From Candidatus Microgenomates bacterium (GTDB lineage Bacteria; Patescibacteriota; JACPGU01), in the NCBI GenBank assembly GCA_016188915.1, contig JACPGU010000002.1, positions 241,211 to 305,210 on the forward strand: DNA of 64,000 bases. Direction: 5' to 3'. Positions 6,759 to 59,932 of this stretch are shown here, one piece after another. Numbering within the stretch: the stretch's first letter is position 1; each line of letters opens with the position of its first letter. Under the pieces are notes generated by a model, which searched no databases, had not been told where the DNA came from, and was given only the letters and a program-made list of their open reading frames with translations. Made by a program: the position numbers and the translations under genes.

Positions 6759-7166
6759 ATGATAAAATTCAACAGGCAATCAGATTATGCTTTGGTTTTG
6801 GCTACGGAATTAGCCATTGACCACAAAAAAGGGAATTGGGTTCCCCTTTCCGTAGTGGCCGACAAATATAATTTGTCTGTTAAATTTTTAGGTTCGGTAG
6901 CCGGTATCTTACGCAAAAAAGGGCTGATTTTATCCAAAGAAGGAACGGGCGGTGGCTATGCTTTGGCGCAAGATCCCAGAGAAATTATGATCGGTGATAT
7001 TCTGTATGCTACCTTGACCGATTCCGCGCCGTCGCTTTGTACTTCCAGTATCGGTTGTGTTAATGAAAAAAAATGTCCGGCCAAGCCAGTTTGGGGAGTG
7101 GTGCAGGGAGTTTTGGAGGAAGTACTTTTTTCCATCAGCCTCAAAAGTTTGCTTAAGATTAAATAA
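6759..7166 (+). CDS. Rrf2 family transcriptional regulator (IscR/SufR-like)
   Basis: The protein has an N-terminal wHTH (MIKFNRQSDYALVLATELA) and a Cys cluster (CTSSIGCVNEKKCP). It is the first gene of the suf operon. Confidence 0.85.
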   Translation: MIKFNRQSDYALVLATELAIDHKKGNWVPLSVVADKYNLSVKFLGSVAGILRKKGLILSKEGTGGGYALAQDPREIMIGDILYATLTDSAPSLCTSSIGCVNEKKCPAKPVWGVVQGVLEEVLFSISLKSLLKIK

Positions 7167-7168
7167 CA

Positions 7169-7912
7169 ATGAATAATCTTCGTATTTCTAATTTGCGTGT
7201 CAGAATCGATGGTAAGGAGATCTTAAAAGGCGTAGACCTTTCTTTAAGCGAGGGCGAGATTCATATCCTAATCGGGCCTAATGGTTCTGGTAAATCAACC
7301 CTGGCGCAAATGGTAGCGGGAAATCCGGGATATCTAGCTAACCGTGGTAGCATCAAATTTTTTGGTAAAAATTTGTCAAAACTTTCTCCTGATGAAAGGG
7401 CCAAGATGGGGATTTTTGTCTCCTTCCAGTCCCCTATCGCTATTCCGGGGCTACCTTTATTCTCTTTGCTTTTTGAATCTTTTAAGGCGATATCAAATGA
7501 AAATAAAAATATTTCTTTTGAATATTTTTTTCGCGATCAAATTATTCCCGGCCTAAAACTTTTGGGGCTAGACCAGTCTTTTATCGATCGTAGCGTTAAT
7601 GATGGCCTCTCCGGCGGCGAGAGAAAAAAATCAGAGATTTTGCAAATGTTGGTTTTAAATCCTAAACTCACTATTTTAGATGAGATAGATTCGGGGCTGG
7701 ATATTGATGCTGTCAAAACAGTTTTTTCCGCTATCAAAAAAATCAAGACTAAAAACCCCCAGATGAGTATTCTGCTTATTACTCATAACCAAAATATTTT
7801 GCGCTATATTAATCCAGATATGGCGCATATCATGAATGATGGGAAGATTATTATTTCTGGTGGAACAGAATTGATTAGAAAAACAAGCGAAAAAGGCTAC
7901 AAGCAAGAATAA
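7169..7912 (+). CDS. sufC: Fe-S cluster assembly ATPase SufC
   Basis: The protein has a Walker A motif (GPNGSGKST) and the LSGGERKK signature. Confidence 0.9.
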   Translation: MNNLRISNLRVRIDGKEILKGVDLSLSEGEIHILIGPNGSGKSTLAQMVAGNPGYLANRGSIKFFGKNLSKLSPDERAKMGIFVSFQSPIAIPGLPLFSLLFESFKAISNENKNISFEYFFRDQIIPGLKLLGLDQSFIDRSVNDGLSGGERKKSEILQMLVLNPKLTILDEIDSGLDIDAVKTVFSAIKKIKTKNPQMSILLITHNQNILRYINPDMAHIMNDGKIIISGGTELIRKTSEKGYKQE

Positions 7913-15892: not shown

Positions 15893-18800
15893 ATGGTGAA
15901 AAAACATTCACCAAAGGGCAAAAAAGCGCGGATCGGCGACGCTTTGTTCACTTTGAGAAAAAGAGGCAAAAGCCCCTGGTTTTTTGCTGTTTTTTTAATT
16001 GTTTTATTTTTAATAGGACAATTAACGAGCAAAGCCTATGCAGCCAATTTTTATCCCAATCTTTGTTTTGGTACTGCCGATAGCAAAAAAGCGGTCGGGC
16101 AGATTAAAAATAGCGCGTCTGATCAGACCCCTTCAGAATTTGCAGTAACAATAGACGAAGAGAACGTGACATTGGATTGCGCGCAATTTCGTGATGAGGG
16201 AAAATCCAGCAGAGTGCGCAAGGTGCAGGAAGCAACGCTAAAGATTTTTTGGAGTACGAATACAGATAGTATTGGCGAAGGGGCAAAAGCGAGTTTTTGG
16301 CAAACAAAGAAAGCTTTGGCGGCCGATGAAGAGACTACGACAGAAATTGTTAGCGAGAAAATAACAGAAGAGATAATTGCTCCGGAACAAATAGAAAACG
16401 TAATTTCTGGCCAGACAATAGGAACAACAGAGCCGATAGAAGATACAGTTTCCGATCAAGACGCGCAAATAAATAAGGCAACTATCGCTATTTCTTATAC
16501 TTTGGATAATGCCATTTGGCAAGATTTGGCAAATGTTGGGATAAATAATCTTGCGACAGAATTTCCTCTAAATCTCAAAGATTCAAGCGATATCGCCAAT
16601 TTCCATTTGCGTGTCACTTCAATCGGAGATTTTGGTCAAAATTTGGTTTTGTTAGACGGTTTTGCCATTAGCGCTGTATTCCAAAACGATTTTAGCGATG
16701 AAGAAATAGAGGCTTTACCTAGGGTAGATATTGGCGAAGAACTTTTTGTCGCGCCCAAAAAAGATTTCCGGGCAGATGAAGCAGTGGAATTTGAAATCAA
16801 AGGCTTTCAAGATGCGGGCACTTCGCAAAACCCAACTGCTTCTCTATCTGAAGCCCGAAGTATTAGTATTGCAAATCTTAAATCTCCCGCCCACCTTGTT
16901 GCGCAAGGTGTTGTGGGCAGGCAAATCTCAAATCTTCAATATATTTTCCCAGCTCATGCTGAAGAAATCACGGCTGGCGCAGTGCAGGTTTTGACCGCTG
17001 AAGTTTATGATCCTATTGGCAACACTGGAACGATAACACCTTTGGTGCAAGAAATAGGAGGAACGACCAAGATCATTGTCAACAAGCCCACTCGTGGATT
17101 CCGTCCCGGCAGGTATCGCTTGCATCTGGAAGTTTTGGATTTGGCTTCCAGCCAAATTCTTATTTCCGATCAAAATTTTACTTGGGGAGTTTTGGCTATC
17201 AACCTTAACAAATCGGTATATTTGCCCTTTGAAAGTGCTTATTTGCAAATGGGAGTGCTAGACGATCAAGGTTCTACCATCTGCAATGCTAATTTAAAAT
17301 TGGAAATAACAGATCCTTTGGGTGGGTTTACGATTTTGACGACCGCTTCTGGGTCGATTTCTTTAAGTGATCAATGTGATAAAAATAATGTGACGGACAC
17401 ACCCGATTATTTCGCTTATTATACAACCGGGGATCTCGGTGTCTATCAAATGACGCTGACCAATCTTACCAATCTTTATTCCGTTACAGACACTTTTGAG
17501 GTCAGAAACTATGCGCCGATGACGATAGAAAGAATCTCGGCCACGCGCATCAATCCCTTTAAGGCCAATTATCGAATGATTTTTGAATTGCGTGCCAACG
17601 AGGCTTTCTCCGGTGCTTTTTCTGAAACTCTGCCGGATAATTTTGAAGTAATTGATCCGACTATTAATAATGATACGGCTTACGATTTACTAATAACTTC
17701 CGGCGACAAAAAAATTATTTCTTGGAATCTCAGTCTCAATCGCAACCAGAGAAAAACCATTACCTATACTTACGATTCACCTGATGTTTCTCCTCAGCTT
17801 TACTTGGCAGGACCAGCTTCGGCGGGTACGATTTTTACCGAAACCAGAAATTGGCAGATCGCATCCGACGCTGCTTGCTCTTCTAACGGTACGGGCAATT
17901 GGAGTAATGGCGCCACATGGTCAGGATGTACGGGAACGGGAGGCGTGCCGGCGGCAGATGATACTATCACCATAACTGACGGTCATGCGGTAACATTGGA
18001 CACCACGGCCACCGTCGCGGGGCTTACTCTCTGCGACTCGGCGTGCAATGCCGATACTTCTTTGACCCATAGCGGGAGCAATGCCCTGACAGTCAATGGC
18101 ACGGTGACCATCAATGGTGGCGCCGGCGCCGGCGACAACACGCTCTGGACTATCAACGGTGGTTCGGCCACCGTTTCGGGAGCAATATCGTATAATCCGC
18201 AGTCTACGACTGGTGGTCGCGATGCCAAAATAGCACTATCCACCGGTACGCTCAACGCCAACGGAGGAATCGTCTTTGAGAATACCGCCGGCTCGGAAGA
18301 CAACCAAATGCTGGCGATGACCAGCACCGCGACTGTCAATCTCAAAGGGAGTATCAGCAATCAAACTCTTGCCGATATTCAGCCGGGGACGACGAGTACC
18401 TTTGTCTATATTGATAGCGCGGCGGCGCAGACGGTTGTCTTTGACGCGACCAGTTCCACCTACGCCAAGCTGACTTTCAGCAACACGCACGCTAGTGGCG
18501 TAACGCTTGGCGCGGCGCTTACCGCTACCAATACAACGGGGGACGTCAATGTCCTGCACGGAATATTTGTAACGGGCGGTTACAATATGACTGGTACCGG
18601 TTCCAATACGCTAACTATGAGCAACGGCTCGCAATTTGATCAGACGGGTGCTACTCTCATCAGCAGTTTCGCCGGTCTTTCCACTAGCGCGACGAGCACC
18701 TACCGACTTTTGACCACCAACGCCACTTTTTCCATGGCGACTTTGATCTATGGCAATGTGGTTGTTTCGCCGCAGGCCAACAATGTGGCGGTGACGCCCA

Positions 18801-21800
18801 GTTCCGGCACGCTGTCTATGCAGGGGTATCTGACGTTGGGAGGAGTGGGCGCCTATACCGGTATCACTTTAAATATTGACACTTCCGATCCGACCTTCAA
18901 TGTAGATGGCGATACGACGATAGGCGCCAACCATACATTGATCTTGAGCGCGACGGGGACAGCTACTTTCGGAGGAAGCTGGACGAATGCTGGCACCCTA
19001 ACCCACTCCTCCGGCACAGTCACTTTTGACGCGACCGACACGGGCAATACTATCAACAACAATTCTTCATCTTTTTACAATCTCAAGCTCAATGGCTCGG
19101 GCGGAGAATGGTCGGCGCTGACCAATACCTTGACTATCGCCAATGACCTCACAGTATCGGCCGGTACGCTTAATAATAGCGCTGGTACAGCCGACATTAC
19201 GGTTAACGGCAATGTGGCTTGTAATGGTACTTGCGGCACTGTCAATCTCACTTCCGGCACTTTCCTGCAAAGTGTGACGACCAACAAAGCTTTCGGCACC
19301 AATGTGGCGGTTGGCACTAATTGGATTTTTAACAATCTCACTTTCACCGGCACTTCGGATACTATCACCACCAGCTCTACCGGCACCGGCACTATTGAGG
19401 TCAAAACCAATTTGACGATTTCAACGGCTACCACTTTGGACGCGGGCAACCGCACCTTCATCCTTTCCGCGGCCTCCACCACTCCCGCCACTTTCACCGG
19501 CACTTTGACGGGTAATACTTCCATCTTTCGCTACACCGGCGCGGGCAACACCACTATTCCGGCCAGCACCGGGTACAGTACGGTTCAGCTCTATCCGGGC
19601 GCTAATTCCGCCATCTTCACTCTCGATTCTGGCACATTCACTCTGTCGGGAGATTTCATCGCGGGCGGAAATTCTTCTTACACCGGCACCACTGTTACGC
19701 TCGGCGCGAACAATCCAACGATGAATATCACGGGCGACTTTACCGTTTGCGCCTCTTCTTGTCCTGAAATGACTTTCACCAAATCATCTAACACTATTAC
19801 TCTAAACGGCACAGCCAATACCAAGACTATCACTGACAACAACACGACCAAGCAAGACCTTGGGAAAATCGCTATCGGCAACGCCTCGGCTGCCAAAATC
19901 GTCAATATGGGCTCTACTTTGAAATTGGAGACGCTCAATATCACTGCCAACGCCACTTTTTCTTTCAACAACGGAGCCTACACTTTGACTATTACCGGTA
20001 CCGGCACGCCATTAACCAAAACCGGTACCTTTACGGCGACCACTGGCACGACGACCTATGTTGGTAATGGCGCGACAACTATTACGGCGGCCACTTACAA
20101 CAATTTACAGATTTTTCCCGGTGGCGCCTCCGTTACTCACACCTTGGCTTCCGGCACTTTCACTATCGGTGGCGATTTGGATATCGGCGGGAATGCCAAT
20201 GGCGCTTCCACTGTCGTTACCGCTGGCGCGAACAACCCGACCATTGGTTTGACGGGCAATCTTGTGGTCTGCGCGTCCACTTGTTCCAACCAGATGACTT
20301 TCACCAAATCTTCCAATACTTTAACGTTGAATGGCACGGCCAATACCAAGACCATCACCGACAACAATACCACCAAGCAAGACCTCGGGGCTTTGGCTAT
20401 CGGCAATGGCGCAACGGCCAAACATATCGGGCTTGGCTCCAATATCAAGGCCACTTCCGTCAATATTACCGCTTCCGCTTTTTTTGAGCCGGGCGCCTAT
20501 ACGGCGACTTTGACAGCCAACGGCACGCCTTTTACCGTCTCCGGCACTTTCACGCCCGCCACTTCTACCATCGAATACGCCCCCGCTTCCACGACCGGTG
20601 TTACGGTAGCCTCCACCACCTATCATCATGTTATTTTCAATAAAACCTCCAACACTTTTTCACTGACCACATCCGGCATTACTACCGATACCGCTAATGG
20701 CGGTGGAGATTTGACTATTTCTGCCGGAACACTAGACACTGTTTCCGGCTCTAATTACCCGATTTCTATTGGGGGTTCTTGGACTAATAGCGACACCTTT
20801 ACCGCCAATTCTGGCACTGTTACCTTCACCTCGGTTAATACTGGAGAAACGCTTTCCGGCACATTGTCCGGCGCTTCTAGTTTCAATAACATAATTTTTA
20901 ATGGTTCAGGCGGAGAATGGACGCCAGGTTCAGCTGTTAATTTGAATGGCGATTTGACCATGACGGCCGGCACTCTGCTCGGCACGCAAAATATTACCGT
21001 CGCTGGCGGAGACGTGACTGGTGATGGCGCTATCACTCTTACCGGCGGGACATTCAAAGTGACGGGCGCTTCCGGCACGGGTTTTGGCGGGGCGACAGCT
21101 TGGAGTTTTTCCTCCCTTACTTTTGGCGATGGTGCTGATAGCGCGACGACGACCGCTACCGGCTCCGGTGGGATAACGGTTTCTTCTGTTCTGACCATTG
21201 ATGCCACTCATACTTTGGACGCGGCTGGTAAGATATGGACACTTTCCGGAACAACTGACCCCTTTGTTAAAACGGGAACTTTTACTCCTAATACTTCTAC
21301 TTTTAAATTTACCGGCAATGGCGCGACCAATATCCCCGCCACCACTTATTACAATTTGCAAGTTTTTCCCGGCGGAGCAGTCACCCATACCTTGGGCGCG
21401 GGAACTTTCACCATCAATAATAATCTGGATCTAGGCGGTAACACCAACCCGGCTTCAACAGTAATCACGGCGGCGACCAATTCTCCGACGGTGAACATTA
21501 CAGGTAATTTGACGCTTTGCGCCACTACTTGTTCCAATCAGATGACCTTCACCAAGGGCGGAACAATTACTTTGTCTGGCGCGGCTAATACCAAGAGCCT
21601 GACTGACAACAACACGACCAAGCAAGATCTGGGCGATATCACTATCGGCAACGCCTCCTTGGCCAAAATCATTCAGCTTGGTTCGTCGATCAAGGCGACC
21701 TCCATCAATATTACGACCAATGCAACGCTTGACGCTAACGGGACGAACACTATTACTTTGACCGGTACAACTACTCCTTTCACTACTAACGGCGCTTTTA

Positions 21801-23233
21801 CTTATTCCACCAGTACCGTGGTTTTCACCGGCAACGCATCTTTTACCATTCCGGCAACCACTTATTATAATTTAACTTTTAGTCCGACCGTGGTGACGAC
21901 CGGCAAGACCTATACTTTTGGCGGAGCAGTGGCGGTCAATAGCGCCTTGGATATCAATCCGGACGCGGCTACCAGTCTTTCTTTGACGGTCAATCTCGGT
22001 GGCGCGCTCACCGGCTCGCCGGCTGTCACCGTTAGAAGGCAAAATTCGGCGGCTTCCGTTTTGGATACTACGGCCGGCAATTATGGTATTACGGCTACCA
22101 GTTTTGACATCCAAGCAGGCGGGACAGTGACACTTAACGCTTCTACTGTTTCGGCTTCCGGCGCGGTGACCATTGCTTCATCGGGGACGTTAAATGCCAC
22201 TTCTGGCACTTTCAGTATTGGTGGCAATTACACGAATAATGGCACTTTTTCTAGCAACAACGGCACCGTTACCATCAACGGCTCTTCGCAGCAGACTTTG
22301 GCCGGAACGATGACAACGACCAACGCTTTCAAGACTCTGACAATTACCAATAGTAGTGGCGCCGATCCCGATGCTTCGCCTTCGGTAATTTTTTCGGCCG
22401 CGGCGACCGCCACCACTTTCAACGCGGTGACGGCCTCAACCAAAATTCGCTTCTTGGCGGGCGCGACCTATACTTTTACCACTTTCAATGTCAATGGCCA
22501 GGCGACCGGTACGCGCGTTCAGCTCCGTTCCTCTTCCTCGCCGACCGCTTGGTTGCTTGTCGCTAGTGGCAGTCCGGTGGTTTATAATACCAATCCCAAA
22601 GATTCCAATGCTTCCGGCGGGAGCAGCATTGATGCTTCAGCCGCATCCAATTTGGACGGTGCGGGCAATACCAATTGGAATTTTGGAGGACTTTCTACTG
22701 ATATTGTAGACAGTAATGGCGATCCAGTGGGTAGTCCAGCGGTAGCTATGGATAACGCTTCTTTAGGTTTTGCTTGCCAGTCTGCTACTGGTACCTTGGG
22801 GGCGGCTTCGCAGAAAATGCGTGTTTCCAATAGCACGGGCAATCCTTCATGGACCCTAACTATCGCGCCGACTGATGGGGCCACTACGACTTGGACGGCT
22901 GGCGCGCCCTTGTATGATTTTAACGACGCGACAGCTTCTGGCTGTTCGGATGGGATAGACGCTGATGGAGTGGGTGGACAGCTAACGATGAACGCTTCGG
23001 CAGGGACGGTGACGCCACAGGGCGGTTGTTCTTCTACGGGAATTACAAAAGGTAATTCAGCTGCTTTTGTGCAGGGCACTACTGACAGCGTCACCATTTT
23101 GTCGGCTAGCGGTCTGGCGGAAACTAGTTGTTATTGGGATTTGACAGGCGTTTCTTTGAGTCAATCAATTCCGCAAGAGCAAACTATCGGCAATTACTCT
23201 TTGAATATGACGATTACTTTGACTGCGAATTAA
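15893..23233 (+). CDS. giant (2446 aa) secreted Thr/Gly/Asn-rich tandem-repeat surface protein with a WxL-like C-terminal domain
   Basis: The protein has an N-terminal signal anchor. A beta-helix-like low-complexity region carries about four ~180-aa tandem repeats (NNPT.N.TG...CAS.C..MTFTKSSNT.TLNGTANTKTITDNNTTKQDLG). The C-terminal ~190 aa are homologous to the 238-aa protein at 11921..12637. Confidence 0.8.
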   Translation: MVKKHSPKGKKARIGDALFTLRKRGKSPWFFAVFLIVLFLIGQLTSKAYAANFYPNLCFGTADSKKAVGQIKNSASDQTPSEFAVTIDEENVTLDCAQFRDEGKSSRVRKVQEATLKIFWSTNTDSIGEGAKASFWQTKKALAADEETTTEIVSEKITEEIIAPEQIENVISGQTIGTTEPIEDTVSDQDAQINKATIAISYTLDNAIWQDLANVGINNLATEFPLNLKDSSDIANFHLRVTSIGDFGQNLVLLDGFAISAVFQNDFSDEEIEALPRVDIGEELFVAPKKDFRADEAVEFEIKGFQDAGTSQNPTASLSEARSISIANLKSPAHLVAQGVVGRQISNLQYIFPAHAEEITAGAVQVLTAEVYDPIGNTGTITPLVQEIGGTTKIIVNKPTRGFRPGRYRLHLEVLDLASSQILISDQNFTWGVLAINLNKSVYLPFESAYLQMGVLDDQGSTICNANLKLEITDPLGGFTILTTASGSISLSDQCDKNNVTDTPDYFAYYTTGDLGVYQMTLTNLTNLYSVTDTFEVRNYAPMTIERISATRINPFKANYRMIFELRANEAFSGAFSETLPDNFEVIDPTINNDTAYDLLITSGDKKIISWNLSLNRNQRKTITYTYDSPDVSPQLYLAGPASAGTIFTETRNWQIASDAACSSNGTGNWSNGATWSGCTGTGGVPAADDTITITDGHAVTLDTTATVAGLTLCDSACNADTSLTHSGSNALTVNGTVTINGGAGAGDNTLWTINGGSATVSGAISYNPQSTTGGRDAKIALSTGTLNANGGIVFENTAGSEDNQMLAMTSTATVNLKGSISNQTLADIQPGTTSTFVYIDSAAAQTVVFDATSSTYAKLTFSNTHASGVTLGAALTATNTTGDVNVLHGIFVTGGYNMTGTGSNTLTMSNGSQFDQTGATLISSFAGLSTSATSTYRLLTTNATFSMATLIYGNVVVSPQANNVAVTPSSGTLSMQGYLTLGGVGAYTGITLNIDTSDPTFNVDGDTTIGANHTLILSATGTATFGGSWTNAGTLTHSSGTVTFDATDTGNTINNNSSSFYNLKLNGSGGEWSALTNTLTIANDLTVSAGTLNNSAGTADITVNGNVACNGTCGTVNLTSGTFLQSVTTNKAFGTNVAVGTNWIFNNLTFTGTSDTITTSSTGTGTIEVKTNLTISTATTLDAGNRTFILSAASTTPATFTGTLTGNTSIFRYTGAGNTTIPASTGYSTVQLYPGANSAIFTLDSGTFTLSGDFIAGGNSSYTGTTVTLGANNPTMNITGDFTVCASSCPEMTFTKSSNTITLNGTANTKTITDNNTTKQDLGKIAIGNASAAKIVNMGSTLKLETLNITANATFSFNNGAYTLTITGTGTPLTKTGTFTATTGTTTYVGNGATTITAATYNNLQIFPGGASVTHTLASGTFTIGGDLDIGGNANGASTVVTAGANNPTIGLTGNLVVCASTCSNQMTFTKSSNTLTLNGTANTKTITDNNTTKQDLGALAIGNGATAKHIGLGSNIKATSVNITASAFFEPGAYTATLTANGTPFTVSGTFTPATSTIEYAPASTTGVTVASTTYHHVIFNKTSNTFSLTTSGITTDTANGGGDLTISAGTLDTVSGSNYPISIGGSWTNSDTFTANSGTVTFTSVNTGETLSGTLSGASSFNNIIFNGSGGEWTPGSAVNLNGDLTMTAGTLLGTQNITVAGGDVTGDGAITLTGGTFKVTGASGTGFGGATAWSFSSLTFGDGADSATTTATGSGGITVSSVLTIDATHTLDAAGKIWTLSGTTDPFVKTGTFTPNTSTFKFTGNGATNIPATTYYNLQVFPGGAVTHTLGAGTFTINNNLDLGGNTNPASTVITAATNSPTVNITGNLTLCATTCSNQMTFTKGGTITLSGAANTKSLTDNNTTKQDLGDITIGNASLAKIIQLGSSIKATSINITTNATLDANGTNTITLTGTTTPFTTNGAFTYSTSTVVFTGNASFTIPATTYYNLTFSPTVVTTGKTYTFGGAVAVNSALDINPDAATSLSLTVNLGGALTGSPAVTVRRQNSAASVLDTTAGNYGITATSFDIQAGGTVTLNASTVSASGAVTIASSGTLNATSGTFSIGGNYTNNGTFSSNNGTVTINGSSQQTLAGTMTTTNAFKTLTITNSSGADPDASPSVIFSAAATATTFNAVTASTKIRFLAGATYTFTTFNVNGQATGTRVQLRSSSSPTAWLLVASGSPVVYNTNPKDSNASGGSSIDASAASNLDGAGNTNWNFGGLSTDIVDSNGDPVGSPAVAMDNASLGFACQSATGTLGAASQKMRVSNSTGNPSWTLTIAPTDGATTTWTAGAPLYDFNDATASGCSDGIDADGVGGQLTMNASAGTVTPQGGCSSTGITKGNSAAFVQGTTDSVTILSASGLAETSCYWDLTGVSLSQSIPQEQTIGNYSLNMTITLTAN
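19690..21700 (+). repeat. in-frame tandem coding repeats (~540-bp period, about four copies) inside the giant gene
   Basis: A recurring DNA block containing accaagcaagacct occurs at ~19850, ~20390 and ~21625. The protein-level repeats are listed above. Confidence 0.7.
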
Positions 23234-23302
23234 TGATTTACCTATTGTTGCTGTGAGGACTGATGTTATAATAAAAACAAGTTTTATAATTAATTTTGTT
23301 CT

Positions 23303-23446
23303 ATGCCAAAAAACAAAAACAAAAAAAGCCAAAAAGGAGATTTTTGCGTGGGCGATTGTTGTTTTCGGAAAGTATATTGGGCGACTTTGGCCGTTTTGGT
23401 TTTACAGATAGCAATTCTCTTGGTTTTCATTTGGAAGTTTATATGA
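23303..23446 (+). CDS. 47-aa ORF (MPKNKNKKSQKGDFCVGDCCFRKVYWATLAVLVLQIAILLVFIWKFI) duplicating the signal-anchor region of the downstream giant gene
   Basis: Its TM segment and DNA (ttttacagatagc..) are paralogous to codons ~25-45 of the 23462..27748 gene (FLIVVLVLQIAVLAILV). It lies 16 nt upstream of that gene. It is not on the ORF track because it is under 60 aa. Confidence 0.3.
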   Translation: MPKNKNKKSQKGDFCVGDCCFRKVYWATLAVLVLQIAILLVFIWKFI

Positions 23447-23461
23447 AATAACTTCTAGCAA

Positions 23462-26400
23462 ATGAAATGGATAAAAAACAAAAAAAGCTATCTTTCCCCC
23501 CTTTCTTTTTTCAAAGAAAAAAGCAATCAAATTTATTCTTTTTTGATTGTTGTTTTAGTTTTACAGATAGCTGTTCTTGCTATTTTGGTGCCATTAGTGC
23601 GGGGAGTAAATTCTACTACTCACACCAGCCAAGAAGATTTTGCGGCAGGCGCTATCTCTCAAACAGCAGTGACTAATAGCTCTGGCGGTGAGATTTCTTT
23701 GGCTACTGTTTCTTCCAGTTTTGCCCAACAATCTTTCGGCACTAACTCTCTCGGCGAAGTAGGAGTCAAGGTCAATGATTTATACGCCGCCTATAGCCCC
23801 AGTCTAGTCCACGATTCCTTAGGCAATACCTACGTTGCCTACTTTTTCGCCGGTTCAACTTGGGATATTGTAGTCAAAAAATATGATTCTGCCGGAGCGC
23901 AAGATTTGACTTTTGGCACAGCTGGCACTTTGACTATTTCATCTTCTGCTGTTGCCGGCGGGATTATGCCCAATACACCATCTTTGGTAGTGGACAATAC
24001 CAACAGTAATCTCTATGTCGCCTGGGATGCCGGAGCGCCTCTCGCCAGCGCTAAAACTATTTATGCCAAAAAGTTTTCTTTTGCTGGTGTTATTGACACG
24101 AGTTTTGGCACGAGCGGGCTTTTGACTGCCGGTAGTAATAACAAATCTATCAGCACGGATCATAGTTTTTCTATTAGTATTGATACCAATAGCAAACTCT
24201 ACATTGCCACGAATGGTACGAGCGGGACGAGCCTCACAGTCAAAAGATACACTACGGCCGGAGCCCTGGATGCTAGCTACGCGACATCCGGAACATTAAC
24301 AGCCGTTTCTACCGGCAACGCGGTCGGTGACCCATATATGGTAGTTAATGGTGGCGACAATCTTTATCTCCTTTACTACGAAAATATTTCCGGTCCGCAC
24401 AAAATCTACGCCAGGAAATTCAATTCTTCGGGAGTAACGGTGACCAGCTTTGGCGCCAGTGGAATCTTGGAGATCGCTTCTTCCACGCAGGCATTGCGAG
24501 ATCCCGTGGTAGTTTTCGGTGGTTCAGAGAACGGCTATGTCGTTTGGACGGAAGCGGCCAACAATGATATTTACGCCAAGAAATTTTCCACGGCCGGAGT
24601 TTTAGACACGAGTTTTGGCACGAGTGGTATGGCAACAATAACTACAGCTAGTAATATTCAGAGGAAACCGGCGCTGGCCCTAGATTCCAGTGAAAATATG
24701 TATATCGCCTGGGAAGATAATCGCGGAGCGGATTACAGCATTTATACTAAAAAATTCAATTCCTCTGGCACGTTGGTTTCCGGCTTTGGAACGGCGGGAG
24801 AATTAGCCACTTTCGATAATAGCAACAATCAATTTTATCCGGCGATTATGACTGATGCCACCGGTGATATTTATCTTGCTGCTTCTGATGATCGCTCTAC
24901 CGGCAATACCAAATATGATTTGTATATAAGAAAATTCAATTCCTCCGGTACGCGATATAACGATTATTCACCGGCCACAGCAGATGATGTGGCGATCAGC
25001 GGTGAATCTTCTAGCCAAGAACATCCTGCTTCCGCTACCGATTCTGACAACAATGTTTATTTCGTTTGGCGCAATATGGCAACGGACGCCAACGGCGATA
25101 TTTATATGAAAAAATACAGCGCCATGGGCTTTCTCTACGACGGTACATCCGCTTCTCCGGAATTTGGCACCGACGGGCAGGTCTTGATTTCCTCTGCCGG
25201 GACGAACGCTGCCCAGCGCGCGCCACGGATAACGCTAGATAGCACTGATAATATTTATGTCTCTTGGTATGACAATCGTGATGGGGCAAATTACGACGCT
25301 TACGTGAAAAAATTTAGCAGTAGTGGCGCGCTAGACGCAACTTTTGGCTCATCAGGAGAGTTAACGGTGGAGGCAGGGATTTTAATCGGCGCGGGCGAAT
25401 CCGATGAACTACCGACAGAAATGGGGCTGGGGGTGGATTCCTCTGACAATATCTATGTTGCTTATTACAAAGATTTGGCTCTGGATGGCGCTGATTACGC
25501 GGTCTATATCAGGAAATACTCTTCGGCCGGCGTTATCGTTTCGGCCTTTGGCAGTTCCGGCACTTTGACGGTAGCAAGTAGCAGCCTAGCCGATACCTTT
25601 CCCACGCTGACTATTTCTTCCGCTAATAATCTTTATGTCGGTTATGTGGAATGGGAGCTGGACTTCTCTGACTCTAAAGTGAAGATTAAAAAATATAATT
25701 CTTCCGGGACGATAGATAGCGCTTTTGGTACGAGCGGGACCATCACTTACGATAATGTTGGCGATATTGATCGCGAGGCGAGGCTGGCTTTGGATTCTAC
25801 CGGAGCCGTTTATCTGGCTTCGGGCAATGTAGATGATCTCATCGCGCCTACTGCCTACCAAATATTCCTGACCAAATATGATTCAGCTGGCGTTATCGTT
25901 ACGAGCTTTGGTACCGGTGGCACGATCACTTTGGCGACTTCAGCCAATGCGACCATCTATCCTTCTATCGCCACAGATTCGGCAGACAATATCTATGCTA
26001 CTTGGACGCAAACGGTAGCCGATAATGATATCAAGCTTCGCGTTTACAATACTGCCGGAACGCTCAATACTAATGTTGGCACTAACGGAGTTTTGGTTTT
26101 GGACTCTACAACGGCCAATGCCAATCAGGTAGCTATAACCGTTGGAGCAGGAGACGCTATCTATTTTGCTTGGTCGGACGGGGCGATATCTGGCGCCAAA
26201 TATGATTTCACTGGCGGTTCGACTGTCTATTATACTTCTGGTACTTTTGAATCGGCCACGATTGATACTGGCTCTAGCACGCAAGTTTACGGCAATTTGT
26301 CTTGGTCGGTAACGACGCCAGTCGGCACATCGGTTTTGTTCCAGGTGGCTACGGCCACCACTGATAGCGGCTATGTCTATCGCGGACCGGGTGGATTTTT

Positions 26401-27748
26401 GGACACCTACTACACCACTTCCTCTGGTCATAATATTTGGTCAGGGGCGGACAGCCAGAGATATTTCCGCTACAAAATGATTTTGGCCACGACCGATGCT
26501 ACGGCCAGTCCTAGTGTAGCCAGTGTTACTATCGCTTATAACCTGCCACCAAACGCCCCTTCTTCTTTAGGGCCGATGGCTTCTATCGACGGAACGGCTT
26601 CTTCTAACACCAGACCTAACTTCTCTTTTACCTTGACCGACAATGATACATCCGACACGGTTGGCTATCGTATTCAAATTAGCCAAGTGAGCGACTTTTC
26701 TTCCAGTATCGTTGACTATACTTCGGCTATGGCCACTCAGGGGACAGCTTCTTTTTCAGTTGGACAGGCTACAGGTAGTGGTAGCTATACGACGGGGTGG
26801 CTTAATCAGACTTTGTCTGAAGGAAATTATTATTGGCGCGTCGCTGCTATTGACGAAAACAATCTTATCGGTAATTGGACGACAGCCAATTCAGGCAATG
26901 TTGCTTTGACAATTTCTTTGCCACCATCCTATACGGCACCTATCGAATCAACCGGCGGAGGTGGCGGGGTAGAACCCAAGGCCGCCACGCCAGAGAAAAA
27001 GGCCACAGAGACCTTTACCGATAATTTTTCCATAAATATTAATGACGATCAGATCAATACAACTAATCTGGAAGTTACTTTGCGTTTTAGTGCTCCTTCT
27101 TCTGCTACGGAAGTGGAGATTTCTAATTATCCTGACTTCAAAGAATCTACTCGCGATCAATTCGCTAGAGAGAAAAAATGGTCTATCTGTGCCGACAAAG
27201 ATACAGGCGCGGTCGGAAAAGCCAACATCAAAACCCACAATTGTTCAGAGGGCGAGTACAGCGTCTATGCTAGATTTTATAATGCCAAAGGAGAAATGTC
27301 GGCAGTTTTCAGAGACACCATCTCTTATCGTCTGAATACGAAAGATATAACTGAGGGGGCAAATCAAGCTATCCCAGAGAAAGGTGGCACGCCACAAAAT
27401 ATTAGTGAGACAATTAGCCCCAACGATAATACTGGTAGTCAAACAGAGATTTTGCCGGCGCTGGTTTTTGTTCCCGACATCATCTTTTTCAACAATATGC
27501 GAGTGGGTTCCAATGGGGTGGAAGTCAAGGCTTTGCAGGAATTTTTGAATAAAAACGGTTTTACGGTAGCTGATAATGGTCCTGGTTCTTCCGGCGGTGA
27601 AACGCAGTATTACGGCGCGTTGACTGCCCGGGCAGTGGCTAGATTTCAAGAAGCCAATGCTGATCAGATTTTGACTCCCTTGGGCTACACCAAGGGTACG
27701 GGTATCTTTGGTCCCGCGACGAGAAATTATATTAATTCACTGAAATGA
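23462..27748 (+). CDS. giant (1428 aa) secreted protein with ~15 delta-60-like repeats, Ig/FN3-like modules and a C-terminal peptidoglycan-binding (PG_binding_1-like) domain
   Basis: Repeated units of ~45-60 aa (IYAKKF.S.G.LDTSFGTSG.LT...) follow a signal anchor. The C-terminus VGSNGVEVKALQEFLNKNGF...YYGALTARAVARFQEAN resembles a PG-binding domain. Confidence 0.8.
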   Translation: MKWIKNKKSYLSPLSFFKEKSNQIYSFLIVVLVLQIAVLAILVPLVRGVNSTTHTSQEDFAAGAISQTAVTNSSGGEISLATVSSSFAQQSFGTNSLGEVGVKVNDLYAAYSPSLVHDSLGNTYVAYFFAGSTWDIVVKKYDSAGAQDLTFGTAGTLTISSSAVAGGIMPNTPSLVVDNTNSNLYVAWDAGAPLASAKTIYAKKFSFAGVIDTSFGTSGLLTAGSNNKSISTDHSFSISIDTNSKLYIATNGTSGTSLTVKRYTTAGALDASYATSGTLTAVSTGNAVGDPYMVVNGGDNLYLLYYENISGPHKIYARKFNSSGVTVTSFGASGILEIASSTQALRDPVVVFGGSENGYVVWTEAANNDIYAKKFSTAGVLDTSFGTSGMATITTASNIQRKPALALDSSENMYIAWEDNRGADYSIYTKKFNSSGTLVSGFGTAGELATFDNSNNQFYPAIMTDATGDIYLAASDDRSTGNTKYDLYIRKFNSSGTRYNDYSPATADDVAISGESSSQEHPASATDSDNNVYFVWRNMATDANGDIYMKKYSAMGFLYDGTSASPEFGTDGQVLISSAGTNAAQRAPRITLDSTDNIYVSWYDNRDGANYDAYVKKFSSSGALDATFGSSGELTVEAGILIGAGESDELPTEMGLGVDSSDNIYVAYYKDLALDGADYAVYIRKYSSAGVIVSAFGSSGTLTVASSSLADTFPTLTISSANNLYVGYVEWELDFSDSKVKIKKYNSSGTIDSAFGTSGTITYDNVGDIDREARLALDSTGAVYLASGNVDDLIAPTAYQIFLTKYDSAGVIVTSFGTGGTITLATSANATIYPSIATDSADNIYATWTQTVADNDIKLRVYNTAGTLNTNVGTNGVLVLDSTTANANQVAITVGAGDAIYFAWSDGAISGAKYDFTGGSTVYYTSGTFESATIDTGSSTQVYGNLSWSVTTPVGTSVLFQVATATTDSGYVYRGPGGFLDTYYTTSSGHNIWSGADSQRYFRYKMILATTDATASPSVASVTIAYNLPPNAPSSLGPMASIDGTASSNTRPNFSFTLTDNDTSDTVGYRIQISQVSDFSSSIVDYTSAMATQGTASFSVGQATGSGSYTTGWLNQTLSEGNYYWRVAAIDENNLIGNWTTANSGNVALTISLPPSYTAPIESTGGGGGVEPKAATPEKKATETFTDNFSININDDQINTTNLEVTLRFSAPSSATEVEISNYPDFKESTRDQFAREKKWSICADKDTGAVGKANIKTHNCSEGEYSVYARFYNAKGEMSAVFRDTISYRLNTKDITEGANQAIPEKGGTPQNISETISPNDNTGSQTEILPALVFVPDIIFFNNMRVGSNGVEVKALQEFLNKNGFTVADNGPGSSGGETQYYGALTARAVARFQEANADQILTPLGYTKGTGIFGPATRNYINSLK

Positions 27749-27789
27749 AATTCGTAGAGGCGTTGCAATGCAACGTCTCTACGAATTTC
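27747..27789. terminator. long near-perfect hairpin (AAATTCGTAGAGgCGTTGCAatGCAACGtCTCTACGAATTT) between the giant gene stop and the tRNA-Pro 3' end
   Basis: The hairpin is ~19 bp. On the minus strand it is followed by a T-rich stretch. Confidence 0.6.
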
Positions 27790-27791
27790 AA

Positions 27792-27864
27792 TCGGGATAG
27801 GCAGACTTGAACTGCCGACCTCCACGTCCCGAACGTGGCGCGCTACCAACTGCGCTATACCCCG
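27792..27864 (-). tRNA. tRNA-Pro with anticodon CGG (73 nt, no encoded CCA)
   Basis: The minus-strand sequence is CGGGGTA-TA-GCGC-AGTTGGTA-GCGC-G-CCACG-TTCGGGA-CGTGG-AGGTC-GGCAG-TTCAAGT-CTGCC-TATCCCG-A. The acceptor has one G-U pair. Confidence 0.85.
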
Positions 27865-27867
27865 ACT

Positions 27868-27960
27868 CAAGCTCTGGCGGGCAGGCGAATCGTGTGCCTT
27901 AGCCAATTAGGCCAGTCGCCGACACAAGCTTTGGCGGGTGGCGCGCTACCAGTGCTACTT
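27868..27960. repeat. tRNA-Pro 5'-fragment duplication plus a 20-nt direct repeat (CAAGCTyTGGCGGGyrGGCG) upstream of tRNA-Pro
   Basis: The copy at 27868-27887 directly abuts the tRNA 5' end. The copy at 27925-27945 is fused to GGCGCGCTACCAGTGCTAC, whose reverse complement GTAGCACTGGTAGCGCGCC resembles the tRNA-Pro D-arm TAGCGCAGTTGGTAGCGCGCC. Confidence 0.5.
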
Positions 27961-28038
27961 ACCGAAATCGGATATCGGTAAATAGTATTTTATCAAAAAA
28001 GACAGACGAAACAAAAAGTTTAAGTTTTCTTCTTGAGA

Positions 28039-28067
28039 TTTGACATTTTTTTGAGGAAGAGTAAAAT
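28039..28067 (+). promoter_or_regulatory. near-consensus sigma70 promoter TTGACA-17-TAAAAT
   Basis: TTGACA is at 28039-28044 and TAAAAT at 28062-28067. Confidence 0.5.
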
Positions 28068-28074
28068 AGTGGCT

Positions 28075-28204
28075 ACCTATGAAAAACAGCAATATCAAAA
28101 ATCTCATTTCTGTCATTTTGCTACCATCGCTGGACGGTGATTTTGCTGTTGGCATATAGAAAAGATTCCAACAACGAAACCACCGCCCAGGCGGTGGTTT
28201 TTTA
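28075..28204 (+). ncRNA. candidate ~130-nt promoter-to-terminator transcript (sRNA or leader) containing a 26-codon sORF
   Basis: The predicted TSS is at ~28075. The sORF at 28079-28159 encodes MKNSNIKNLISVILLPSLDGDFAVGI and has no SD. The terminator AAACCACCGCCcagGCGGTGGTTT+TTTT lies at 28177-28204. Confidence 0.3.
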
Positions 28205-28230
28205 AATACCTTAAAAATCGGAGGCAGAAT

Positions 28231-28939
28231 ATGGAAACGATTAGCGACCATTTCCCTTTTTGTAGTCTTGACGAAGCGGTTGACGTTCAGAAAAAAAAGA
28301 CGGTTTGATACTGGCCTTTTTAAGGCCGTAGAAAAATTTGTCGGAGAACTGCCTGATTTTTTGCAAAAAGATTTTGATTGGAAAAAACCGACGACGGCTA
28401 TTGTCACGCCCCTGGCCAGTTGGCGAGAAGTAGATCAGATTTTTCTTGATCGATCTGCCAGAGTAGGCGCGCGCGCGATTTGGCTGGAATTTTCCAAGGA
28501 TCTTTTTAGTCCCACTAATTGTTGGAAAAAAGAATTCATTTTGGTTCGCAATAACGGCCAGACAAGAACTTTGGTTAACCCCGAGAGATTTGCTGGTCAA
28601 CCCTTTGCCTGGGTCGTGGTCGATGATGGTGACTATCTGATTGATTGCCATCATCAATTGCGTCACAGATTGACGGAAGGTACAGATGGTCGAACGCCGT
28701 ATTTTGACATCTCTCCCTGGCTTTGCCAAAAAAGAAATGGTCAAAAGCTCGGCCATATCACACCCCTTCTGGCTTTGGCGGTCATGCATTTCATTTTAGT
28801 TTTGTATGACCATACCCCTTCTCTACTAGCCAAAAAAATCCAGCCGGCCAGTCTTTTGATAGAACAAAGATTGGGCGTTAGGCCGTTGATTGTTGATCTC
28901 GGCGTTTCACATTCTTCGGCCAGGATTTTGCTCCAGTAA
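28231..28939 (+). pseudogene. hypothetical protein gene interrupted by a +1 frameshift in an A8 homopolymer (28291-28298)
   Basis: An ATG at 28231 has a strong RBS (aatcGGAGGcagaatATG) and encodes METISDHFPFCSLDEAVDVQKKK, stopping at 28306. Deleting one A joins it in frame to the 223-aa ORF, whose only upstream start is a TTG at 28268. Confidence 0.45.
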
Positions 28940-28992
28940 TTTTTTTAGGCTAAGATAGATGGTCACCCCTTCTCTCTTGGCTTGTTTCAAAA

Positions 28993-29022
28993 AAAACGCC
29001 CCTCATCACGGGGGCGTTTTTT
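28993..29022. terminator. bidirectional rho-independent terminator
   Basis: The sequence aaaaaaACGCCCCtcatcacGGGGGCGTtttttg is flanked by A and T runs between convergent genes. Confidence 0.75.
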
Positions 29023-29064
29023 GTATTTATTCGAACGATTCGCTCTAATTCAAGCAATTCGCAT

Positions 29065-30087
29065 CTAAAGTTTCTTTTTAATCGTCGGATATTCCTTAGT
29101 TAGCACCGAGATGGTGGCGACCGCCGGAACGGCGAGCAGTACTCCCAAAATCCCTGCCAATTTACCGCCGACCAAAAGGGCGATTAGAGTGATAAAGGGA
29201 GAAATCCCTAGCGCTTTTTGCATTATTTTTGGTACGAAAACCTGATTTTCCAATTGCTGGATGATGACATAGGCAATCAAAACGACGACTGCCAGCCAGG
29301 GCGAAGACAGATAGGCCAAAATCACTGCCGGGATAGCCGCGATAATCGGCCCAATGGTTGGTATAACTTCCATTAGTCCGGCGATTAAACCCAGGGTCAA
29401 AGCGTATGGCACTTGCAAAATAAACAAAATAATAGTAGTGGCTACGCCTACCACCGCCATCAAGCTGATTTGTCCGACCACCCAAGCTCCCATTTTATCC
29501 GAAATCTTTTTGCTGACTTCCACGATGTAGGCTTTCTGAGAAATAGGCATTAAGGAAACAAAAAATTTCCTAATACCATCTTCTTCCAGGAGCAAAAATA
29601 AAGTCAGAACCAGAATGTAGAACAAAGTCGCTATTCCTCCAAAAAAGCTACTGGCCGATTTGACGATGGTATCAGCAACATTTCCCAGGGTAGAGGAGGC
29701 TGATTTGATAGAACTAGAAGAGTCCAATAAGCCGTTGCCACTGAAAGTGCTGAAAAGCTCATTAATTTTTTGAGAATAGCCTGGTAGATTGTGGGAGATA
29801 TTTTGGATTTGGTCAACAACTGGCGGAATAATCATATAGCCGATAATGCCAAAGATCAAAAGAAGCCCCAAATAAATCAGAAGAATGGCCATTATTCTGG
29901 GAATATTGAGGCGGTCTTTTATTTTGTCAACCAATGGCGAGAGTGCGGCGTTTAGGATAAGAACGATAAAGAGAGTGAGGATAATATCAAATAGATGCAG
30001 CAAAAGATAAAAGCTAATGATAGCAACAGCCACTTTGACAATACTGCTCCAAGATATTTCCCAGACGGTAGTTTGTTTTGTTGACAT
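29065..30087 (-). CDS. AI-2E family transporter (PerM/YhhT/TqsA-like)
   Basis: The protein has ~8 TM helices and the family-typical N-terminus (IVKVAVAIISFYLLLHLFDIILTLFIVLILNAALSPLVD). The start is taken at the internal MSTKQ; the longer ORF-track start would overlap rplY. Confidence 0.8.
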   Translation of the reverse strand: MSTKQTTVWEISWSSIVKVAVAIISFYLLLHLFDIILTLFIVLILNAALSPLVDKIKDRLNIPRIMAILLIYLGLLLIFGIIGYMIIPPVVDQIQNISHNLPGYSQKINELFSTFSGNGLLDSSSSIKSASSTLGNVADTIVKSASSFFGGIATLFYILVLTLFLLLEEDGIRKFFVSLMPISQKAYIVEVSKKISDKMGAWVVGQISLMAVVGVATTIILFILQVPYALTLGLIAGLMEVIPTIGPIIAAIPAVILAYLSSPWLAVVVLIAYVIIQQLENQVFVPKIMQKALGISPFITLIALLVGGKLAGILGVLLAVPAVATISVLTKEYPTIKKKL

Positions 30088-30127
30088 TATTTTTTGATTA
30101 GTTTTTGTTTTTATTATATAACGAGAT

Positions 30128-30823
30128 CTATTCTTTGGCTGGAGTTTGCTCTTCGGCGAGCGCTTCGTTTTCTGTTTCTTCTTTCTCTGGTTTCTCAACG
30201 GCATCGCCAACAGCTTCAATATTTTCCTCTACTTTTTCTTCCAGCGCGGCTAATTCTTCTTCACTCCTAGGCGGATTGACCAAGGCAATAGTTTCTTTAA
30301 GGTCGGTAATCATTTCTACATTGGCTGGCAATTTGATGTCGGAAGCCGTGATAGAGTCCTCAAAAGTTTTCAATTTTTCCAAATTGACCTCTAGCTCGTG
30401 CGGAATATTGGCCGGTAAACATTTGACCTCAATTTCAGTTTTATTAGTGATTAATGTTCCTTCCAAATCTTTTACCGCGGTCGATTCACCAACGAATTTT
30501 ATCGGTATGGTGGTTTCTATTTCTTCGTCCATTTTTACTTCATAAAAATCAATATGGATAGCTTCGTCGCGAAGAGGATCCAGCTGCACATCATGTGCCA
30601 AAACGTTACGAGGGGTATTCTCGCCTTCAATGTTTAATTCAATCAAACTGTTCTCTCCCGCTTGGCGAAAAACACGATTGAATTCTTTTAGATCAATAGA
30701 AATATTGACATTGGTTTTACCCTTGCCATAAACTACACCAGGAGTAATACCGATCTGTCGCAAAGGCCCCAATCTTGCTCCCTTCTCTTCTCTTTTTTTA
30801 GCTATCAGTTTGTATCCTACCAT
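30128..30823 (-). CDS. rplY: 50S ribosomal protein L25 (long Ctc/general stress protein form)
   Basis: The N-terminus MVGYKLIAKKREEKGARLGPLRQIGITPGVVYGKG matches L25. A beta-barrel domain and an acidic C-terminal tail follow. Confidence 0.9.
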   Translation of the reverse strand: MVGYKLIAKKREEKGARLGPLRQIGITPGVVYGKGKTNVNISIDLKEFNRVFRQAGENSLIELNIEGENTPRNVLAHDVQLDPLRDEAIHIDFYEVKMDEEIETTIPIKFVGESTAVKDLEGTLITNKTEIEVKCLPANIPHELEVNLEKLKTFEDSITASDIKLPANVEMITDLKETIALVNPPRSEEELAALEEKVEENIEAVGDAVEKPEKEETENEALAEEQTPAKE

Positions 30824-59083: not shown

Positions 59084-59275
59084 TTAATTAGATTTTTCAT
59101 TGTTGTCGGTGAGGACTTGTTCTTTTTCTTTATTCTCTAGATATATTTTATATAAAATCTCATAATATTGGGTTATTTGTTCTGCATATAGCCCCGCTTC
59201 CTCATCTGTTAGCTCTTTTCCAGCCTCCTCTTTTACTATTCGTTTGAATTCTTGTATTAATTTTTCTGATAACAT
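59084..59275 (-). CDS. small acidic helical protein (hypothetical)
   Basis: The 63-aa ORF may be the last gene of the minus-strand operon. Confidence 0.3.
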   Translation of the reverse strand: MLSEKLIQEFKRIVKEEAGKELTDEEAGLYAEQITQYYEILYKIYLENKEKEQVLTDNNEKSN

Positions 59276-59476
59276 ATCTTTGTTCTAAATGATAATTGTT
59301 TTAAGCTCCTAAATTACCGAACAAATACCGAATATTTACTGAATAAGAAGATAAAAAACTACCCCTATATAAAAGCTCCTATTCAAAAATGGCGTTGGGG
59401 GGGGTCTTTCCTTTATGGGTGGTAAGCCGAGTGGGAATCCTGCTTCCTCAAAGCGAAGGCTAACTTAAAGTATTTC

Positions 59477-59932
59477 TTAAACTTTTTTGTTCTTTGCTAG
59501 ATTATGGCCGTATTTAACAGCATTTAGGATTAATAGTTGGATTTCTTTTACAAAAAACTTTGGGTAACTTACTAAATCCTCTTCTGATTCATTTGGATAG
59601 CTTTTTGAATCTTCTTCAAATTCTCCTGAACAATTTCTTAGATCCTTTTCTAATTCACACAGATAAATATTATTAGCCTTTTCTTTAATTTCCTCCTCAC
59701 TTATTAACTGACCATCTTCAATACCATATTTGACGGCTTCCCTAATGCGATCGTAGTGCCAGAAGGGGATATTGACGATATCTCTTATTTCTTTCCATCT
59801 TTCTTTGGTTATATGCACATTACCTATAGACTCATCAACATACTTTCTTAGAAGACTATCTAAAGCATCATAGGGATTAGTTTCAAAATCAAATGTTTCT
59901 TGGTTTTTCATAGGTTTATATTTAAAAGACAA
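59477..59932 (-). CDS. hypothetical acidic cytoplasmic protein
   Basis: The 151-aa protein has no recognisable family. It overlaps the upstream CPBP gene by 11 nt, suggesting translational coupling. Confidence 0.45.
   Translation of the reverse strand: MSFKYKPMKNQETFDFETNPYDALDSLLRKYVDESIGNVHITKERWKEIRDIVNIPFWHYDRIREAVKYGIEDGQLISEEEIKEKANNIYLCELEKDLRNCSGEFEEDSKSYPNESEEDLVSYPKFFVKEIQLLILNAVKYGHNLAKNKKV

Follow-up and report, generated by a model that had tools for sequence, protein, structure and literature searches.

A gene split at an A8 run in a variable slot of a Candidatus Microgenomates genome: a probable incipient pseudogene of an uncharacterised protein family

Two reading frames joined by an A8 run

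The window analysed here, a stretch of 64,000 nucleotides (nt) from Candidatus Microgenomates bacterium assembly GCA_016188915.1 (contig JACPGU010000002.1, positions 241,211 to 305,210), carries near a tRNA-Pro gene a plus-strand coding sequence that is interrupted close to its 5′ end at a run of eight adenines (A8). The locus consists of a 25-codon open reading frame (ORF), hereafter ORF1, and a 223-codon ORF, hereafter ORF2, which runs from TTG 28268 to 28939 in the +1 frame relative to ORF1. The parts of this coding sequence, of which the ancestral assignments rest on the family comparison given below, are as follows.

28220 to 28224, plus strand: Shine-Dalgarno (SD) motif GGAGG, with a 6-nt spacer to ATG 28231
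28231 to 28308, plus strand: ORF1, which opens with the gene's ancestral start and initial 22 codons (METISDHFPFCSLDEAVDVQKK) and closes with three out-of-frame codons and TGA
28291 to 28298, plus strand: A8 tract, the probable site of a one-base insertion; conserved residues bracket the break, and the Logan assembly also has A8
28298 to 28939, plus strand: the gene's other 213 codons and its stop, read in the +1 frame; this open frame is listed as ORF 28268-28939

Frame 1 from ATG 28231 reads METISDHFPFCSLDEAVDVQKKKTV, includes the A8 run and ends at TGA 28306-28308. With one A removed, the two frames merge into an ORF of 235 codons, and with two As added, into one of 236. The 25-codon stop, the position of the A8 run and the one-A fusion to the 223-aa ORF with its TTG start, from which a preliminary description of this DNA had derived a split gene, were all verified on the sequence. 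The same description had praised the ribosome-binding site as excellent; the GGAGG is genuine but is weak evidence, because three of the eight GGAGG-N4-10-ATG sites in the window open ORFs of no more than 25 codons and the majority of the long ORFs have no SD motif, so that this site alone proves little. Its characterisation of the gene as moderately GC-rich does not hold, as the G+C content is 44.9% versus 42.4% for the window and 43-51% for the neighbouring genes. Runs of this length are common as well: 18 A8 and 11 T8 runs (29 in total) and 85 A7 or T7 runs were counted in the 64 kb, and the A8 run alone is not beyond chance, whereas the split itself is.

The only NCBI annotation at the locus is HYV44_02435, a 219-aa hypothetical protein starting from TTG 28280. 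On the minus strand, the gene is overlapped by a 182-codon antisense ORF (28241-28789), which the annotation of the Logan assembly lists instead of the sense ORF; this call is artefactual and arose because the frameshift has made the sense ORF shorter. As other gene callers had picked the antisense ORF, the 219-aa NCBI product had no exact match in a look-up.

Homology across the split and the protein family

A word-indexed homologue search with the fused protein matched only the gene itself, and an exhaustive HMMER search over 1.84 billion representatives yielded 31 distant homologues with 27-34% identity, mostly of 237-289 aa. A profile search added 14 more, so that about 45 homologues of 22-34% identity were collected, all from bacteria of the Candidate Phyla Radiation (CPR) and all unannotated. 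Common to them is the N-terminal motif Y/F-x4-EA-x2-E-L-x2-R-R-x-D-x2-L-x3-V-x2-F-L-G-x-L-P, which the one-A-deleted fusion (FCSLDEAVDVQKKRRFDTGLFKAVEKFVGELP) matches without a gap across the tract. The leading part of the motif, Y/F-x4-EA-x2-E-L, was aligned to F10...A16...V19 of the ORF1 peptide, and in the family alignment frame 1 supplies the near-invariant A16 and frame 2 the 98%-conserved R23, the stretch from one to the other aligning without a gap. The break is thus bracketed by the codons of the conserved V17, which like A16 is read in frame 1, and of R23 (28282-28298). A8 is the sole repeat in this interval and is the break site. From the alignment we infer an ancestral A7 tract, read as AAA AAA AGA (K K R), a form that matches the family spacing exactly.

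Variants of the N-terminus were scored with a profile built from the homologues alone. The highest score, 128.9 bits, was obtained by the A7 fusion, followed by the A10 fusion (124.9 bits), ORF2 from TTG 28268 (121.9 bits) and the core from R23 (118.6 bits). None of 300 shuffled N-termini reached the fusion score (mean 121.0, standard deviation 1.5, maximum 126.2 bits), and N-termini of the same length taken from frame 2 and frame 3 scored 122.0 and 121.4 bits, respectively. Only with the frame-1 N-terminus did the alignment reach profile position 5, and this peptide raised the score by about +7 bits over the frame-2 and frame-3 alternatives. For the 235-aa fusion, AlphaFold2 with a 43-sequence alignment returned a model with a predicted local distance difference test score (pLDDT) of 90.4 and a predicted template modelling score (pTM) of 0.87, in which a predicted helix of residues 13-23 spans the junction and residues 11-20 have a mean pLDDT of 97; a single-sequence run (pLDDT 32) was not usable. 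The frameshift is absent from all of the ~45 homologues. Judged by this homology, ORF1 and the 223-codon ORF are one ancestral gene broken within the A-tract, with ATG 28231 as the ancestral start.

The same comparison bears on the possibility that the locus makes two functional products, namely a truncated protein of 219 or 223 aa from TTG 28280 or TTG 28268, with or without the 25-aa peptide. NCBI annotates such a 219-aa protein, and SD-less TTGs are not disqualified where most genes have no SD. Both TTGs, though, fall within the translated ORF1, and the truncation would delete most of the conserved and confidently modelled helix. Orthologues starting at the internal TTG had been named beforehand as what would speak against a split gene; the N-termini of the homologues instead align to the frame-1 peptide and none of them begins at either TTG position, so that this objection fails. 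A functional truncated product is very improbable, and the least probable of the alternatives considered here.

The fold of the family, which measures ~240-290 aa and is uncharacterised and restricted to CPR bacteria, is predicted to be Rossmann-like (HUP-class-like) alpha/beta, a resemblance at the level of the fold only. No family was assigned to the fused protein or its homologues by Pfam, NCBIfam, PHROGs or PADLOC, a sequence search of the PDB with the family profile gave no match, and a Foldseek search against the PDB gave nothing significant. The conserved signature reads ...ATPNxE...DKF...DFHH...W...YY...PLIV. The HUP-class domains to which the fold is likened comprise the catalytic domain of class I aminoacyl-tRNA synthetases, BshC, ATP sulfurylase, nucleotidyltransferases and cyclodipeptide synthases; unlike them, the family has no sequence match in Pfam, NCBIfam or the PDB, and neither the HIGH nor the KMSKS motif occurs in its 43-sequence consensus.

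Neighbourhoods of the family gene were compared in three further CPR genomes (L001 6001-10395, L003 5679-8557 and L004 5615-8386), where it adjoins a gene for a homologous multi-pass membrane histidine kinase of ~540-556 aa (HisKA/HATPase_c). An EamA transporter gene stands by the family gene in two of these three loci, and each of the three has a small gene of ~120-140 aa immediately upstream or close by, two of these small genes encoding homologous Cys-rich membrane proteins. Neither these partner genes (histidine kinase, EamA and small Cys-rich protein) nor a second family copy was found within the 64-kb window. The window copy is the lowest-scoring full-length and most divergent member of the family (191 bits versus 218-292 for the others), and 22 of the 29 highly conserved family positions are kept in it (family range 21-29, mean 26.4). 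From its sequence and gene neighbourhood, it appears as a divergent, solitary (orphan) member of a family that normally stands beside a membrane histidine kinase. Confidently modelled from the 235-aa fused query and unannotated until now, the family is a candidate new signalling-linked enzyme. One member of 470 aa carries an N-terminal GNAT acetyltransferase domain.

The A8 insertion: reality, consequence and alternatives

The state of the tract was compared among assemblies. The contig of an independent Logan assembly of SRR12113420, which was reached through an exact product look-up of the neighbouring L25 gene, matches the window at 100% identity and without a gap across 20,696 bp, and its tract too is A8. 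The exact 182-aa antisense product, which spans the tract and depends on A8, is present on two contigs, and the contigs that carry it equal in number those that carry the L25 and AI-2E genes, so every assembled copy has A8; the fused 235-aa protein found no match among 5.8 billion database proteins. Within the window, 25 of the 28 other A8/T8 runs lie inside intact long ORFs, hence the assembly is not prone to homopolymer errors. The A8 insertion is thus probably real in the DNA, and an assembly artefact is unlikely.

An artefact would mean that the true genome has A7 and an intact gene. In its favour, homopolymers are the commonest sites of indel errors, the gene is otherwise perfect, and the compared assemblies may come from the same reads. 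Against it, two different assemblers agree exactly over 20.7 kb, a third contig likewise bears the A8-dependent antisense product, and the other length-8 A/T runs just mentioned leave their ORFs nearly always unbroken. We give an intact A7 gene a very small probability, and the sequencing error that the preliminary description had offered as one explanation is made unlikely by the two-assembler identity and by A8 on all contigs on record. The locus-tag era suggests, unconfirmed, that the window's metagenome-assembled genome (MAG) comes from the groundwater study PRJNA640378. That study used MEGAHIT to assemble Illumina 150-bp paired-end reads (PMC7906910); if the MAG were from that project, an error in the A8 consensus would be improbable.

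Thus a single base was probably inserted into the poly(A) tract in recent time, a real and reproducible change by which an orphan accessory member of the CPR family described above would be inactivated. The decay into an incipient pseudogene, one of the possibilities named before this analysis, is favoured by the homology across the two frames, the reproducible A8, the intact remainder of the gene and the lack of any frameshifted homologue. An A7 to A8 insertion in the Lys-Lys-Arg codons near the 5′ end would cause ribosomes that enter at the ancestral SD and ATG 28231 to stop after 25 codons, and would leave the remaining 213 codons with no efficient start of their own; with this early stop and no efficient downstream start, the gene would be null or strongly hypomorphic, i.e. 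an incipient pseudogene. Replication slippage back to A7, together with rare transcriptional or ribosomal slips, may yield traces of full-length product, which would be incidental leakiness and not an evolved switch. The insertion is probably recent, since both start signals (SD and ATG), the N-terminal residues conserved in the family and the 213 downstream codons have stayed intact and the conserved family positions are kept to the extent given above. That the gene is dispensable, and under relaxed selection, is plausible from the absence of its partners in the window, the absence of the segment in the closest relative (see below) and the divergence of the copy.

Several points weigh against this interpretation. 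The evidence on tract length comes from consensus assemblies, which hide minority lengths and may share the same or related read sets; the search for partner genes covered 64 kb, and partners may be elsewhere in the genome. Scans of GTDB genomes and JGI metagenomes retrieved no close relatives, and, the gene having no close orthologue, the event has neither a ratio of nonsynonymous to synonymous substitution rates (dN/dS) nor a date. Moreover, two intact halves are equally expected of a recoded or phase-variable gene.

In the case of phase variation, which the preliminary description had put forward, the A-tract would be an evolved contingency locus that is switched between ON (A7 or A10) and OFF (A8) by slipped-strand mispairing in replication. 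The homopolymer does lie close to the 5′ end of a gene that is intact in all other respects, a one-base change there restores the frame cleanly, and the gene has its own strong promoter-like site and its own SD and is placed in a variable accessory slot. Such features recall the phase-variable contingency genes of Neisseria, Haemophilus, Helicobacter, Campylobacter and Mycoplasma, which also have a homopolymer near the 5′ end of the coding sequence and are toggled between a full-length and a truncated state by a one-base change. Contingency tracts, in contrast, are atypically long for their genome, polymorphic among isolates and enriched in surface, restriction-modification and lipooligosaccharide genes, none of which was seen for the A8 gene. 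The present tract is short and ordinary among the A7/T7 and A8/T8 runs counted above, merely codes for K-K-R in an A+T-rich genome, and is not kept in the family, as the equivalent site reads CAT CGA AGG AGC in L001 and has A6 in L004; it is therefore neither longer than the genomic background nor conserved in orthologues. Its length is identical (A8) in three assemblies, at the level of consensus sequences that hide minority alleles, and no ON-state protein is in the database. The product resembles a cytoplasmic enzyme with a Rossmann-like fold; no surface features were noted, and it matched no PADLOC defence-system model and no PHROG or Pfam family, so that the gene does not fall into the surface, restriction-modification or defence classes typical of contingency genes. 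An evolved switch of this kind is consequently unlikely.

Poly-G/C tracts are classic sites of phase variation. The sole G8 run of the window (59397-59404) is intergenic and lies between the minus-strand ORFs 59084-59275 and 59477-59932.

Programmed or habitual recoding would, alternatively, make the full-length protein from the A8 template, either because RNA polymerase slips and drops one A or adds two, or through a ribosomal +1 or -2 frameshift on A AAA AAA AG. Both halves of the gene are intact, and the zero frame holds the heptamer A_AAA_AAG, the classic slippery sequence of dnaX; as all eight bases are A, a -2 or +1 shift would sterically allow Lys-tRNA to re-pair in tandem. Rescue of poly(A) frameshifts by slippage has reportedly been documented in reduced genomes, as covered by a review, and in Citrobacter tssM. 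The shift favoured on the heptamer, -1, nevertheless enters the third frame and stops after 10 more codons (KKDGLILAFLRP and a stop), and the productive frame is reached only through a +1 or -2 shift. Upstream of the slippery site there is no SD-like stimulator, and the downstream hairpin stands at a spacing of 0 nt and fails to reach significance (z = -1.8, with an equally good fold in 13 of 200 shuffles). The locus hence shares the identical zero-frame heptamer with dnaX-type programmed -1 frameshifting but differs from it in that the -1 frame is a dead end, the productive shift is +1 or -2, no SD or hairpin stimulator stands at a functional spacing, and the family does not share the arrangement, all ~45 homologues being free of the frameshift. 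The A10-type product also fits the family worse than the A7 type, by the scores given above. For the transcriptional route, a systematic reporter study (PMC6260861) detected no one-base deletion slippage by Escherichia coli RNA polymerase in poly(A) runs as long as A8; by these data a run of eight is too short, although a CPR polymerase may differ, and by analogy with the E. coli enzyme transcriptional slippage at A8 looks weak. Taken as a whole, recoding is quite unlikely.

Other decoding routes were rejected as well. The conserved R23-R24 are coded in frame 2 upstream of GTT TGA, which excludes a prfB-like +1 shift at that site; and if UGA were read as Gly (code 25), frame 1 would stop five codons further on at TAA.

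An inactivating insertion, as preferred here, resembles the poly(A) frameshift pseudogenes in the reduced, A+T-rich genomes of insect endosymbionts such as Buchnera and Blochmannia, in which a single-base indel in poly(A) Lys codons likewise splits an intact gene of a small-genome, host-dependent bacterium; some low-level transcriptional rescue is conceivable here too. The tracts in those endosymbionts are usually at least 9-10 nt long, rescue at the RNA level has been demonstrated, and some of the frameshifts are conserved between species, whereas the present tract has 8 nt, is shared by no relative and is known from DNA alone. HYV44_02435 would then be better annotated as a frameshifted pseudogene of a 235-aa protein than as a 219-aa coding sequence from TTG. 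As a frameshift it would be of little significance, a textbook homopolymer indel in a dispensable gene.

The variable slot, the leader and the flanking genes

The split gene belongs to a segment that differs between close relatives, and the other features of this segment and its border are listed here.

27739 to 28991, no strand: lineage-specific variable segment of 1.25 kb, delimited by blastn against the closest relative, L009
27791 to 27865, minus strand: tRNA-Pro gene (anticodon CGG; ARAGORN; Rfam tRNA 65.9 bits)
27918 to 27972, minus strand: scrambled partial copy of the 5′ portion and 5′ leader of the tRNA-Pro gene
28040 to 28067, plus strand: putative promoter TTGACA-16-TAAAAT, a near-consensus sigma-70-type match at 11 of 12 positions
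28123 to 28203, plus strand: long imperfect hairpin (28123-28198, -36.2 kcal/mol, z = -5.1) and T6
28991 to 29022, no strand: strong bidirectional intrinsic terminator with a 13-bp stem, common to the gene and the convergent AI-2E transporter gene

The segment is enclosed by two conserved genes that converge on it with their 3′ ends and encode a giant protein of 1428 aa and an AI-2E transporter. In the blastn comparison with L009, whose AI-2E protein is 71% identical, homology was confined to window positions 25502-27738 and 28992-30730. L009 is syntenic on both sides, with L25 and AI-2E on one and a giant protein of ~1426 aa on the other; its slot (7104-7797) has hicB and hicA, a HicB/HicA toxin-antitoxin pair, in place of the segment and contains no tRNA, whereas the window segment holds the tRNA-Pro gene, its partial copy, the promoter with the leader, and the frameshifted gene. 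The 3′-3′ slot between the genes of the AI-2E transporter and the giant, presumably cell-surface protein is thus a variable site in the lineage. Beside the AI-2E gene in L010 and L011 stand other unannotated small genes.

The partial copy is marked by an exact 14-nt repeat, GTGGCGCGCTACCA, at 27835-48 and 27938-51, and by an imperfect 22-nt repeat (19 of 22 identical) at 27861-82 and 27918-39. This partial duplication of the tRNA may be a scar of the rearrangement that made the variable segment. The gene had been described beforehand as fitting the cargo of a former integrated element, and the replacement of the 1.25-kb segment, tRNA included, by hicBA in L009 agrees with this much of the proposal. 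No integrase family is present among the genes within 10 kb, however, the composition does not deviate, the gene flanks the tRNA on its 5′ side, and no att repeat of the tRNA 3′ end was found, the sole tRNA repeat being the scrambled 5′-portion copy. On this comparison of sequences, support is only loose for cargo of an integrated element but good for an accessory gene in a variable slot.

The TTGACA-16-TAAAAT match is the sole candidate promoter for the gene and is followed by ~130 nt of RNA predicted to be strongly structured. Besides the long hairpin, an alternative compact G+C-rich hairpin can form at 28176-28201, and the T6 (28198-28203) ends either of them; the element is terminator-like, and its T6 end lies 17 nt 5′ of the SD. 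In a fold of 166 nt, the SD and start region pairs with 28104-28114. No Rfam family matched the leader, and a T-box or other known riboswitch was rejected as no Rfam match appeared at E <= 1. From the modelled structures, the leader could be a candidate attenuator or riboswitch-like element, or a separate small RNA. It also contains an SD-less ORF of 26 codons at 28079-28159.

The leader gives rise to a wider variant of the switch hypotheses, in which A8 would act as a functional switch, by phase variation or by low-efficiency +1/-2 recoding, that meters an orphan Rossmann-fold enzyme behind an undescribed terminator-containing 5′ leader (28040-28203). We consider this variant quite improbable; if true, it would be two-layer control on an accessory gene in a CPR bacterium. 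To our knowledge, neither contingency loci nor recoding have been characterised in CPR bacteria.

On the far side of the tRNA, a perfect inverted repeat with 22-nt arms and a 1-nt spacer occupies 27746-27790, from the stop codon of the 1428-aa gene (27746-27748) to the 3′ end of the tRNA-Pro gene (27791), and is likely a bidirectional terminator. The 1428-aa gene is the second of two very large consecutive genes at 15893-27748, encoding 2446 and 1428 aa, with 75-78% DNA identity in the closest relative. The 1428-aa protein has a weak C-terminal PG_binding_1 match and long Ser/Thr/Gly-rich repeats, and both products presumably belong to the cell-surface proteins that episymbiotic CPR bacteria typically have.

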